Shown: positions 9,501-12,049 of the stretch, piece by piece
Layout of the letters: every line of letters starts with the position of its first letter
Position numbering within the stretch: position 1 is the first letter of the stretch
Made by a program: the position numbers and the translations under genes
The notes under the pieces: generated by a model
Databases searched by the model: none
What the model was told of the DNA's origin: nothing
The model's input: the letters and a program-made list of their open reading frames with translations, nothing else
NCBI GenBank assembly: GCA_964647615.1
Contig: CAZYIV010000004.1
Location: 6,236-70,235 of the forward strand
Direction: 5' to 3'
DNA from: an uncultured Gemmatimonadaceae bacterium
GTDB taxonomy: Bacteria > Gemmatimonadota > Gemmatimonadetes > Gemmatimonadales > GWC2-71-9
Length of the DNA stretch: 64,000 nt

Positions 9501-9659
9501 CACCTGCCACCAGCCGGTGCCGAGCGAGCTCTCGAGGTCGAGGCCGGTGAGCGCGGTCCAGCGCGGGTTCACGAAGGTGCACTCGCCCGCCGGGTCGCAC
9601 AGCAGCAGCGCAGCGGGCACGGCGCGGAGGATCTGGCTGGCGGCGGTCTCCGGCATCAT
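6528..9659 (-). CDS. Hybrid sensor histidine kinase (3x PAS-HisKA-HATPase-degenerate REC-REC-HPt)
   Basis: 1043 aa with three PAS-like units before H-box [16 protein letters not shown]. HATPase DTGIGI/GGTGLGL, receiver VVDDNRVNQ...[10 protein letters not shown]...SKP, HPt [17 protein letters not shown] overlaps at both ends. Confidence 0.95.
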
Positions 9660-12049
9660 CCGGCCCTCCCGGGGACCGCGGCCTCACGGATGGCCAGCTC
9701 GGCCTCCAGCAGCGGGACCACCGCCTCGAAGGCGGAGATCGCGTGGCTCAGCAGGGCGGGCAGGTCGGCCTGGGGACGCCCGGCCGCCTGCTCCAGTACG
9801 CCGGCGGCCTGGGCCAGGCGCCCCGCCCCGAGCGCACTCGCGGTGCTCTTGAGGGTGTGCGCCTCGCGCTGGATCAGCCGGTGGTCGCGGCGCAGCGCCG
9901 CGGCGTGCAGCGCGCCCAGCCGCTCCGGCGCATCCTCGAGGAAGGCACGGAGGACCGAGCGGACCACGCGGCCGTCGTGGTCCTCCGCCTCCCGCGCCGC
10001 GCCGGCCAGCACCTCGGGGTCGAAGTCCGCCGGGCCGTCGGCCGGCCGGGTCCAGCGGGCAAGCGCCGCCTCCAGGGCGGAGGGCTGCACCGGCTTGGCC
10101 ACGTAGTCGTCCATCCCGGCATCGAGGCAGCGCTCGCGGTCGCCGGCCAGGGCGTTGGCGGTCATCGCGATGATCGGCACCCGCCCCCCGCCGGCTTCAC
10201 GCCGCCGGATCTCGCCGGTGGCCTGGTACCCGTCCATCACCGGCATCTGGCAATCCATGAGCACCGCCGCGACCGACGCCGTCGCGAGGAAATCCACCGC
10301 CGCGCGGCCGTGCTCCGCCACCACCGCCTCGTACCCGAACCGCTGCAGCAGCGCCAGCGCGAGGGTCCGGTTCACCGGGTTGTCCTCGACCAGGAGCACC
10401 CGCGGCCGCGCGGGGGCCGGCGTCTCGGGGGTGGCCGGCGCCCCCCGCGCCAGCGCCAGCTTCACCGCGGCGTGGAAGGCGGCCCGGGTGGGAGGCGCGG
10501 AGACCGGCACCGCGCCCGGGGGCAGGGCCGGCTCGCCCGGCCGCCGGCGGCGCAGCAGCAGCGGCGGCGGAAGGCACTCCCCGGCTTCCGCGACGAGGCG
10601 CGCCAGCACCTCGGCGCCGTCGCCGTCCGGCAGGGTGTGGTCCAGCACCAGCAGCGCGGCCCCCGCCGCCGGACGGCGGGCCAGCCGCAGCACCGCGAGC
10701 GCCTGGCCCGCATCCCGCGCCGCGGTCACCCGGGCCCCCAGCTCCTCCAGCAGCCCCGTCAGGTGCAGGCGGCTCCCCGGGTGGGCACAGACCAGCAGCG
10801 CCTCGAGTCCCGAGAGCGGCAGGTCCGCGGGCGCCGTCGGCGCCGCCGGGGCTCGCTCCAGGGTCGCGGTGAACCAGAAGGTGCTGCCCGCGCCGGGCGC
10901 GCTCTTCACCCCGATCTCGCCCCCCAGCAGGTGGACCAGCCGGCGACACACCGCGAGCCCGAATCCGCTGGCGACCGGCGCGGGATCCGCTCCCGCCCGC
11001 CCGGCCAGCTCGAACAGTCCCTCCTGCGCTTCGGGCGTGATCCCGGGGCCGGTGTCCTTCACCTCCACCCGGAGGGTGATGCTGCCCTCGTCCGCGGGGG
11101 TGGCGCTCACCCGGACCGTCACCTCGCCCCGCTCGGTGAACCGGATCCCGTTCGACACCAGCGCGAGGACCACCTGACGCAGCCGCAGCGGGTCCCCCAG
11201 CAGGGCGGCCGGGACCGCCGGGTGCACCAGGCACACCAGCTCGAGTCCGCGGATGTGGGCCCGCTCCGCCAGTGCCTCCACCGCATCCTCGAAGCAGCCG
11301 CGCACGTCGAACGGCACCGCCTCGGTGGCCACCTCGCCGGCCTCCAGCCGGGAGAAGTCGAGCAGGCCGCCCAGCCGTTCCAGCAGTCGCTCGGCGGCAC
11401 CCTGGACGTCCTGCGCCAGCCGCCGGGCCTCGGGTCCGAGGCCGGCGTGGTCCAGCAGCCGTGCCAGCGGGGCCGCGAGTGCCTCGGCGGGGCCCCGCAG
11501 GTCGCGATTGAGCCGGGCGAGGAACTCCGCCTTGACGCCGCCCGCGCGCTGCGCCACTTCCTTGGCCTGGCGCAGCTCTTCCCGCTGGGCCGTCAGCCGC
11601 TCCGCCAGGCTGCGGACATCGCCCAGCGCCATCCGCTGCGCCTGCATGACCTGCAGCAGGTCCATGACGGGGTCGTGCCGGGCAAAGTCGGCGGCGACCA
11701 GCCCCGCGGCGCGGAGCTCCGCCGGGTCGGTGAGCCAGGGCGAACCGAGAAAGGCGAGGGCGTCGCCGTCGAGGGGGAGCAGCTGGCCGCGGAGGCAGGC
11801 GGGCTGGTTGCGGGGCTCCAGCACCACCGCGCGGTCGGCCAGGGCCAGCAGGCCGGCGCGGCTCACCGGCGGTTCCATCCCCCGCACGGCGAAGAGGTCG
11901 TCGAAGCTGGCGCCGGGGACGGCGCCCGGCGCCACCTTGGGCAGGGACGGACCGGCCTGCACCAGCCGCAGGGCCGGGTCCAGGATGAAGTGGAACGGGA
12001 ACGCCGTCGCCAGGTGGTCCGGCGGGAGGCCAAGCGCCGGGGGGGTCAC
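9656..12049 (-). CDS. HNOBA-like sensor fused to a His-less kinase core, degenerate REC, REC and HPt (pseudo-kinase phosphorelay protein)
   Basis: N-terminus FPFHFILDPALRLVQAG...LRGQLLPL...FLGSPW...HDPVMDLL matches the heme-NO-binding-associated (HNOBA) pattern of soluble guanylate cyclases. The H-box position reads FLARLNRDLRGP (Arg instead of His, codon 11504-11506). Canonical receiver [10 protein letters not shown]...MDCQMPVMDG...AKP and HPt EAHTLKSTASALG. The start is uncertain: GTG 12049 chosen; TTG 12253 and TTG 12349 are also in frame. Confidence 0.85.
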   Translation of the reverse strand: MTPPALGLPPDHLATAFPFHFILDPALRLVQAGPSLPKVAPGAVPGASFDDLFAVRGMEPPVSRAGLLALADRAVVLEPRNQPACLRGQLLPLDGDALAFLGSPWLTDPAELRAAGLVAADFARHDPVMDLLQVMQAQRMALGDVRSLAERLTAQREELRQAKEVAQRAGGVKAEFLARLNRDLRGPAEALAAPLARLLDHAGLGPEARRLAQDVQGAAERLLERLGGLLDFSRLEAGEVATEAVPFDVRGCFEDAVEALAERAHIRGLELVCLVHPAVPAALLGDPLRLRQVVLALVSNGIRFTERGEVTVRVSATPADEGSITLRVEVKDTGPGITPEAQEGLFELAGRAGADPAPVASGFGLAVCRRLVHLLGGEIGVKSAPGAGSTFWFTATLERAPAAPTAPADLPLSGLEALLVCAHPGSRLHLTGLLEELGARVTAARDAGQALAVLRLARRPAAGAALLVLDHTLPDGDGAEVLARLVAEAGECLPPPLLLRRRRPGEPALPPGAVPVSAPPTRAAFHAAVKLALARGAPATPETPAPARPRVLLVEDNPVNRTLALALLQRFGYEAVVAEHGRAAVDFLATASVAAVLMDCQMPVMDGYQATGEIRRREAGGGRVPIIAMTANALAGDRERCLDAGMDDYVAKPVQPSALEAALARWTRPADGPADFDPEVLAGAAREAEDHDGRVVRSVLRAFLEDAPERLGALHAAALRRDHRLIQREAHTLKSTASALGAGRLAQAAGVLEQAAGRPQADLPALLSHAISAFEAVVPLLEAELAIREAAVPGRAG

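Follow-up and report, generated by a model that had tools for sequence, protein, structure and literature searches.

What becomes of a sensor kinase that has neither the histidine on which it would be phosphorylated nor, next to its own gene, the sensor protein that would instruct it? We addressed this question in a stretch of 64,000 nucleotides from an uncultured Gemmatimonadaceae bacterium (assembly GCA_964647615.1, contig CAZYIV010000004.1, positions 6,236 to 70,235; hereafter the window, about 73% G+C), in which the open reading frame (ORF) at 9656-12049 on the reverse strand encodes, from a GTG start, a protein of 797 aa (identical protein recorded as P0002), which we refer to as the target. 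An earlier note, made from the letters of the window alone, had described this protein as an HNOBA-like sensor fused to a kinase core that lacks its phospho-accepting histidine, with no H-NOX partner nearby. In domain order, the target comprises an HNOBA (H-NOXA) domain, a DHp domain without histidine, an eroded ATPase (CA) domain, a degenerate receiver, an intact receiver and an intact HPt domain. Its N-terminus lines up with the starts of its orthologs in the alignment, and the G+C content at its three codon positions (0.82, 0.57 and 0.90) follows the pattern of a coding gene.

The sensor domain and the kinase core

We found that the N-terminus, in which the earlier note had recognised the HNOBA pattern, matches the Pfam family HNOBA (PF07701) at 49.7 bits (E 4.2e-13), above the gathering score of 23.4. 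The closest solved structure is the H-NOXA domain of a Nostoc punctiforme signal transduction histidine kinase (2P04 and 2P08; E 2e-12 and 4.5e-10), followed by the PAS domains of soluble guanylate cyclase (sGC) alpha1 and beta1 (6PAS and 6JT0; E 2e-6 to 5e-5). When scored on an HNOBA family hidden Markov model (HMM) from whose building it was excluded, the target, at 189 bits, exceeds the family median of 176, in a comparison that is lenient since its set was picked by similarity to the target. Furthermore, the domain keeps 26 of the 27 positions that are conserved in at least 80% of 224 relatives, losing one where the family median loss is two; the family-conserved residues include FPFH, RGQ, SPW and DFxxHD...D. 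These matches place the target firmly within the HNOBA domain family.

Upon aligning the target with the two hybrid kinases of the same operon, we observe that the H-box, SHEIRTP in both, reads NRDLRGP in the target, and that the acceptor histidine is replaced by Arg182, encoded by CGC at 11504-11506, as had been claimed. The HisKA match reaches 23.7 bits, under the gathering score of 26.9, and the HATPase_c match reaches 85 bits, compared to 106-111 bits in the sister kinases. The reported erosion of the G2 box (GGTGLGL to ASGFGLA) was also recovered, and it is accompanied by a short deletion in the lid and by the loss of the F-box Phe. Of the 34 positions in the kinase core on which at least 90% of relatives agree, the target has lost 12 (S181N, H182R, E183D, T186G, G193A, N296A, A301G, K303R, F349A, G360A, L363F and I367V), five of the conserved positions being lost in the H-box region, whereas the family median is 0. 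What the CA domain retains is N300, the G1 box (D332, G334 and G336; DTGPGI) and two G2 glycines. On an HMM of the histidine kinase core, the target reaches 204 bits where the median is 314, and just two of the 139 sequences score lower. In addition, helix 1 after the H-box is rewritten from MNGVLGMT to AEALAAPL, with the introduction of a proline (Pro194). The surface that serves histidine phosphorylation and receiver docking has been released from constraint in the target. With no acceptor histidine and a HisKA match below threshold, the protein would not be classed as a functional HisKA kinase, and because the acceptor histidine is absent in sequence, it is predicted to be unable to autophosphorylate at the canonical site, or to use its own DHp domain for phosphotransfer.

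The output half of the protein presents a different picture. Pfam Response_reg matches two stretches of the target, at 108.6 bits for the whole protein. The first receiver lacks the acidic pair and the Lys, and the orthologs are equally degenerate there. The second receiver, which the earlier note had judged intact together with the HPt domain, retains E555/D556, D599, T630 and K652, and the HPt domain keeps H731 within the motif HTLKS, aligned with the His of both sister kinases and of the orthologs, so that this judgement is upheld for both domains. When comparing the target with its ortholog domain by domain, the identity is 50% in HNOBA, about 41-42% in DHp, 56% in CA, about 46% in the first receiver, 72% in the second receiver and 51% in the HPt region. 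The DHp domain of the target is 34-35% identical to those of its two paralogues in the window, whereas the DHp domain of the ortholog is 71-72% identical to them.

The missing H-NOX gene

We next turn to the partner. When searched with an HMM derived from 59 H-NOX proteins at related loci, the 64-kb window showed no H-NOX, the best hit among six-frame ORFs of at least 25 aa having an E-value of 5.7, in agreement with the earlier note. That note had left the absence as an open puzzle about the ligand and partner, and this part of it does not stand, as the orthologs carry the H-NOX gene directly upstream and it appears to have been deleted in the lineage of the window. A genome scan with a 6-sequence HNOBA alignment yielded 75 loci, distributed over Gemmatimonadota, Cyanobacteria, Bacteroidota, Verrucomicrobiota, Planctomycetota, Acidobacteriota, Chloroflexota, Myxococcota and Proteobacteria, and 71 of these have upstream DNA. 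A same-strand H-NOX ORF lies upstream in 66 of the 71, always within about 1 kb and mostly ending at or near the HNOBA start. A cis-encoded H-NOX is the rule for the HNOBA kinase family, and the target, with no adjacent H-NOX, stands outside the module of H-NOX plus HNOBA kinase.

The only five of the 71 loci without an H-NOX within 6 kb (L005, L013, L015, L020 and L022) belong to Hyalangium versicolor and four Gemmatimonadota metagenome-assembled genomes (MAGs), and all five keep the H-box histidine. Because four of the five fall in Gemmatimonadota, this suggests recurrent loss or relocation of H-NOX in that phylum.

The closest relatives of the target form the P0003 cluster, from Gemmatimonadota MAGs, and its gene order is common to four Gemmatimonadota contigs. 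The conserved order runs through a sigma-54 activator, EamA, AsnC, a REC-GGDEF-REC protein, an amino-acid permease, DUF4097, zf-HC2 and an ECF sigma factor, followed by the divergent kinase operon with PAS kinases downstream, and the neighbouring proteins are 55-76% identical between the window and locus L001. This synteny marks the genes of the P0003 cluster as positional orthologs of the target. At three of these loci (L006, L080 and L081), an intact H-NOX of 183 aa sits precisely between the ECF sigma gene and an HNOBA kinase with the H-box MSHEIRTP; the H-NOX of L006 shows both NFHTRV, with the haem-ligating His, and YHSSR, the YxSxR motif.

The fourth contig offers an observation of its own. 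At L001:9669-10004 (GCA_016713435.1, JADJPD010000003.1; a contig shared with L004), the H-NOX is internally deleted to 111 aa, retaining only HMM positions 1-35 and 144-182, so that the haem-binding middle is gone, and the kinase is canonical. This gene is either an intermediate of the same decay or a defect of long-read assembly.

In the window, the intergenic DNA is homologous to that of the orthologs up to the H-NOX start, ATGTAC, after which 102 nt are left before the GTG of the target. These hold an ORF of 33 codons, in the slot that H-NOX occupies in the orthologs. The ORF begins with the ATGTAC homologous to theirs, and its stop overlaps the target start as GTGA, in the manner of the H-NOX genes of the orthologs. 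The interior of this stub has no similarity to H-NOX in an alignment test (score 10, shuffle mean 11.3, with 461 of 500 shuffles scoring at least as high), and no Pfam family matches the ORF. The stub is probably the scar of a deleted H-NOX gene, as judged by its position, the common ATGTAC and the overlapping stop and start only. The comparison thus points to a lineage-specific deletion of the gene that stands directly upstream in the orthologs and in most of the family.

The intergenic region at 12148-12357 also contains blocks conserved with the orthologs, including GTTGGAACGG, which resembles an ECF-type -35 element and lies beside the ECF sigma gene. Scans of this region and of the operon end found no sigma-70 promoter or terminator.

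Rarity of the histidine loss

An exhaustive HMMER search with aa 1-268 of the target against 1.84 billion representatives returned 6,098 proteins at an E-value of at most 1e-10. The best 150 of these 6,098 matches all have an N-terminal HNOBA domain, and among them, the target aside, the canonical box S/T-H-E/D-x-R-x-P is present in all except four, namely two short proteins without a kinase core, one variant box that keeps the His, and the protein P0092. We scored the acceptor column on a single HMM across the kinase cores of the proteins with N-terminal HNOBA and the 75 genomic loci, and found His in 204 of the 206 sequences that have a residue there, the exceptions being the target and P0092. 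Among 5.8 billion 90% clusters, that of the target has three members and no relative lies between 52% and 99% identity to it. Because the next relative is only 52% identical, the form without His appears to be confined to one species-level lineage.

The substitution recurs in independent data. The protein P0152, from the Logan assemblies SRR17659542 and SRR17659536, differs from the target at two residues and has the same Arg182 and upstream region. Across about 7 kb, those Logan contigs differ from the window at three bases, all inside the target gene (window positions 10611, 11489 and 11518, corresponding to E480A, a synonymous change at P187, and A178T). Two of the three are non-synonymous, and the H-box is flanked by two of them, A178T and the silent P187 change. 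Arg182 is real and not a sequencing error.

The second exception, P0092 (L079:245-2447, Logan SRR33086902), carries an independent His-to-Arg change in the box TSRELGCP, with an intact H-NOX upstream and normal N, G1, F and G2 boxes. We considered whether H-NOX loss forces the loss of the histidine as a rule and rejected this, as P0092 has lost the histidine with its H-NOX intact, and L001, L005, L013, L015, L020 and L022 keep it without an intact adjacent H-NOX.

Interpretation and alternative explanations

We favour, at a probability of roughly 0.55, the reading that the target descends from an H-NOX-regulated hybrid kinase, has become kinase-dead in this lineage only, and persists as a receiver-HPt relay or sink that is fed in trans. 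The comparison shows that the ancestral operon comprised H-NOX, the HNOBA hybrid kinase and two PAS hybrid kinases, divergent from an operon of ECF sigma factor, anti-sigma factor and DUF4097. In the lineage of the window, the H-NOX gene was deleted down to the stub that still overlaps the kinase start. The kinase core lost its acceptor histidine along with most of the H-box and the adjoining surface of helix 1, and it also lost the F-box and some of the G2 box and lid. In the relatives and in sGC, HNOBA serves as a module for dimerisation and H-NOX docking, and the target would most likely persist as a dimeric scaffold. Its D599 would be phosphorylated only in trans, the most plausible donors being the two sister kinases to which it is translationally coupled, and H731 of its HPt domain would pass the phosphoryl group on or drain it. 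The outcome would be a relay or sink of the RcsD or RetS kind within a three-kinase cluster, from which gating by nitric oxide (NO) through a cis-encoded H-NOX would be gone.

Several aspects of the operon are consistent with this reading. ATGA overlaps join the target stop to the start of kinase 1 and kinase 1 to kinase 2, and the three genes appear to be translationally coupled. The sister kinases suggest themselves as donors, since the DHp domain to which the receiver of the target was ancestrally matched is about 72% identical to theirs. The proposal of the earlier note, that the co-encoded kinases feed a sensor-regulated phospho-sink or shuttle, is plausible, and it fits the ATGA coupling, the conserved receiver and HPt domain, and the 71-72% identity of the ancestral DHp domain to those of the sisters. 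The candidate terminal acceptor of the phosphorelay could plausibly be the REC-GGDEF-REC protein of the conserved neighbourhood.

Several points weigh on the other side. Both sister kinases have a receiver and an HPt domain of their own, so that the need for an extra relay is not obvious. Helix alpha1 of the target receiver reads LALALL, like the ortholog and unlike the sisters (KVAARML and KVATQML). No other syntenic gene is as dissimilar to its ortholog as the target, at 51% overall identity. The fall of all three Logan differences inside the target gene, two of them non-synonymous, leans toward relaxed constraint, albeit in tiny numbers. Finally, P0092 combines the His-to-Arg change with a kept H-NOX and a normal CA domain, and the two losses are therefore not obligatorily linked.

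Some of these points feed the strongest of the alternatives, unlikely in our view but of real weight, in which the target is a non-functional relic drifting toward a pseudogene after its H-NOX input was deleted. The ORF would stay open since stop codons are rare at 77% G+C, and it would remain as the first coupled cistron before kinases that are needed. The shrinkage of H-NOX to a stub, the heavily eroded catalytic core, the low identity to the ortholog and the placement of the Logan differences are all consistent with such drift, and an ORF of 829 aa on the opposite strand (9743-12232) shows that long chance frames occur here. Set against this, the erosion is uneven, the HNOBA domain having kept all but one of its conserved positions, the second receiver all its catalytic residues and the HPt domain its His, whereas the H-box lost five conserved positions in the same period; the codon-position G+C is also that of a coding gene, though this pattern decays slowly. 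Because HNOBA, the second receiver and the HPt histidine stayed constrained while the DHp domain eroded, this domain-specific erosion argues against plain whole-gene decay. Decay after the loss of the input is nevertheless at least as likely as a designed sink, and it carries weight because the H-NOX deletion is lineage-specific and the loss of His is confined to one lineage.

An extension of the relay or sink reading, which we regard as improbable, holds that the orphaned HNOBA domain has become an H-NOX-independent input or interaction module, steering a dead-kinase scaffold that tunes the two sister kinases. It could do so by siphoning through the receiver and HPt domain, by heterodimerisation through DHp or HNOBA, or by pairing with a live HNOBA kinase encoded elsewhere; the haem-free alpha subunit of sGC, which pairs with beta, is a model for such HNOBA pairing. 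If this were true, the target would give the first demonstration that an HNOBA domain can function with no cognate H-NOX, and it would add a naturally occurring pseudokinase that regulates a multikinase network beyond the Proteobacteria.

That the target still responds to NO, through an H-NOX encoded elsewhere that docks on HNOBA and gates the scaffold in trans, for example from beside a second, HNOBA-GAF kinase locus such as other Gemmatimonadaceae have, is similarly doubtful. In its favour, the conservation of HNOBA equals that of typical family members, Gemmatimonadota genomes can hold a second H-NOX accompanied by an HNOBA-GAF kinase (L057), and the five family loci without an adjacent H-NOX keep their histidine. 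Yet no H-NOX lies within the available 64 kb of the genome, three Gemmatimonadaceae HNOBA-GAF loci (L013, L015 and L020) are likewise without one within 6 kb, and the adjacency in 66 of 71 loci argues for cognate, cis-encoded pairs.

Far less probable is a non-canonical active kinase, whose CA domain would phosphorylate the histidine of a sister in a DHp heterodimer, or another acceptor such as H201. The retention of the N-box Asn300, of DTGPGI in G1 and of two G2 glycines, and a HATPase_c match that still reaches 85 bits, speak for residual activity. Against it stand substitutions or deletions that affect the F-box Phe, the first Gly of G2, K303 and part of the lid, and a DHp helix 1 that is rewritten and contains Pro194. 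As a substitute acceptor, H201 was rejected, as it lies in the turn between helix 1 and helix 2, 19 residues off the acceptor position, and is absent at that position from the orthologs and sisters.

An assembly or sequencing artefact, conceivable for a MAG contig whose long-read ortholog L001 has a broken H-NOX that may itself be an assembly problem, has a negligible probability, since the gene, Arg182 and the upstream stub recur in two independent Logan assemblies with three differences in about 7 kb and the H-box differs at many codons rather than at a single base.

Returning to the target as a kinase-dead relay or sink, the locus and its relatives form a natural series, from intact H-NOX with a live kinase (L006, L080 and L081), through broken H-NOX with a live kinase (L001), to deleted H-NOX with a dead kinase (the window). 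This series shows which parts of an H-NOX-dependent hybrid kinase are still constrained after the NO input and the catalytic histidine are lost, and it nominates a candidate pseudokinase regulator in a three-kinase operon of the poorly studied Gemmatimonadota. The target reveals neither a new sensor type nor a new ligand. It also counsels caution in annotation, as the labels "HNOBA histidine kinase" and "response regulator" overstate its activity.

Features of the locus and the rest of the window

The coordinates of the target, its domains and the genes around it are collected in Table 1.

Table 1. Coordinates, strand and supporting evidence of the target gene, its domains and neighbouring features, in window positions
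Feature	Position	Strand	Evidence
Target gene, 797 aa, GTG start	9656..12049	-	ORF, Pfam, alignment with orthologs
HNOBA/H-NOXA PAS-like domain and start of signalling helix, aa 3-162	11564..12043	-	PF07701, 2P04, family HMM
Degenerate DHp, HisKA-like, aa 166-240; H-box NRDLRGPAEA; P194 in helix 1	11330..11554	-	Sub-threshold HisKA
Codon CGC, Arg182, at the position of the phospho-acceptor His	11504..11506	-	Alignment
HATPase_c (CA) domain, aa 285-397	10859..11197	-	Pfam, conserved-position count, alignment
First receiver, degenerate, about aa 414-540	10430..10810	-	Pfam, alignment
Second receiver, aa 551-663	10061..10399	-	Pfam, alignment
HPt domain, aa 699-774	9728..9955	-	Pfam Hpt, 45.4 bits
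Stub ORF of 33 codons (MYRSSS...GRA*), 102 nt, in the H-NOX slot of the orthologs	12046..12147	-	Positional evidence only
Divergent intergenic region, about 60% identical to that of L006, homologous up to the H-NOX start codon	12148..12357	.	Alignment
Co-operonic hybrid kinase 1: three PAS, HisKA, HATPase, two receivers, HPt; canonical SHEIRTP	6528..9659	-	Pfam, alignment
Co-operonic hybrid kinase 2: PAS, HisKA, HATPase, two receivers, HPt; canonical SHEIRTP	3988..6531	-	Pfam, alignment
Divergent ECF sigma (12358-12924), zf-HC2 anti-sigma (12924-13592) and DUF4097 (13608-14444) genes	12358..14444	+	Syntenic anchor of orthology
REC-GGDEF-REC protein, conserved synteny	19145..20782	-	Synteny

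Between the DUF4097 genes and the amino-acid permease, the window has a further hybrid kinase (GAF-PAS-PAS-HisKA-HATPase-REC; 15245-17710, reverse strand) that is without a counterpart at that position in L001, which reflects either an insertion or a loss relative to the ortholog.

Outside this neighbourhood, we observe three further gene groups. At 25117-33209 on the forward strand, a bacterial alpha-2-macroglobulin of 1,932 aa is followed by an overlapping gene for a PBP1C-type penicillin-binding protein (Transgly, Transpeptidase and BiPBP_C), the classic A2M-PbpC pair. A cluster for arginine biosynthesis and regulation occupies 33944-43533, with argininosuccinate synthase, an ornithine/aspartate carbamoyltransferase, an amino-acid kinase, an M20 peptidase (ArgE-like) and the ArgR repressor. 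At 54680-62745 on the forward strand lies a locus of the starch-utilisation type, with genes for two alpha-amylase family enzymes alongside those for a SusC-like TonB-dependent receptor and a SusD-like protein; it may have been horizontally acquired, as its G+C content drops to 0.67-0.70, from about 0.73.

Comparison with known systems

The HNOB and HNOBA domains were reportedly first defined by Iyer, Anantharaman and Aravind in 2003. Among characterised proteins, NpSTHK of Nostoc punctiforme (Npun02000820; the source of structures 2P04 and 2P08) resembles the target in its N-terminal H-NOXA/HNOBA domain, signalling helix and HisKA-type kinase. The target differs from this family of H-NOX-HNOBA kinases in having no adjacent H-NOX, which 66 of 71 loci have, and no acceptor histidine, which 204 of 206 sequences have. 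H-NOXA mediates dimerisation (PMC2828450).

Control of an operon-partner kinase by the stand-alone haem NO sensor H-NOX is well studied (PMC4436077). The H-NOX kinases of Shewanella, Vibrio and Silicibacter (HnoK/HahK/HqsK type) share the operon logic of H-NOX plus kinase with the orthologs of the target, and the REC-GGDEF protein in the conserved neighbourhood of the target is a further likeness. The target itself differs from them in having neither the H-NOX partner nor the histidine. To our knowledge, kinases of this type have not been reported to carry HNOBA.

RcsD provides a precedent for a hybrid-kinase-like protein that acts with a partner kinase and makes no use of a histidine of its own: its histidine kinase-like region has no acceptor histidine, its ATPase domain is degenerate, one of its domains resembles a pseudo-receiver, and its functional HPt domain relays the phosphoryl groups of another hybrid kinase. 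The target is alike in lacking the acceptor histidine and in having a degenerate ATPase domain, a degenerate receiver and an HPt domain, and it differs in being cytoplasmic and in having an extra intact receiver and an HNOBA sensor. Aa 158-443 of the target give a weak match to the NCBIfam RcsD model (PRK10618; 70.2 bits, cut-off 634). We rejected homology to RcsD, given a score far below the cut-off and a cytoplasmic HNOBA N-terminus.

RetS of Pseudomonas aeruginosa, likewise built like a hybrid kinase, modulates GacS by DHp heterodimerisation, by phosphatase activity and by siphoning to its own receiver, and its own autophosphorylation is not needed (PMC5992135, PMC8498467). By analogy, RetS may serve as a functional model for the target as a sink, with the differences that RetS keeps its histidine and has a periplasmic sensor, whereas the DHp surface of the target has strongly diverged.

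The PAS domains of sGC alpha1 and beta1 are homologous to the HNOBA domain of the target, and in the orthologs of the target, H-NOX and HNOBA together correspond to the N-terminal half of sGC beta1, split over two genes. Compared to sGC, the target has a phosphorelay output instead of a cyclase, and its H-NOX is absent. Pairs of H-NOX and HNOBA kinase, and phosphorelay proteins without histidine, are both known already; what is new here is a kinase-dead, H-NOX-orphaned HNOBA hybrid protein.

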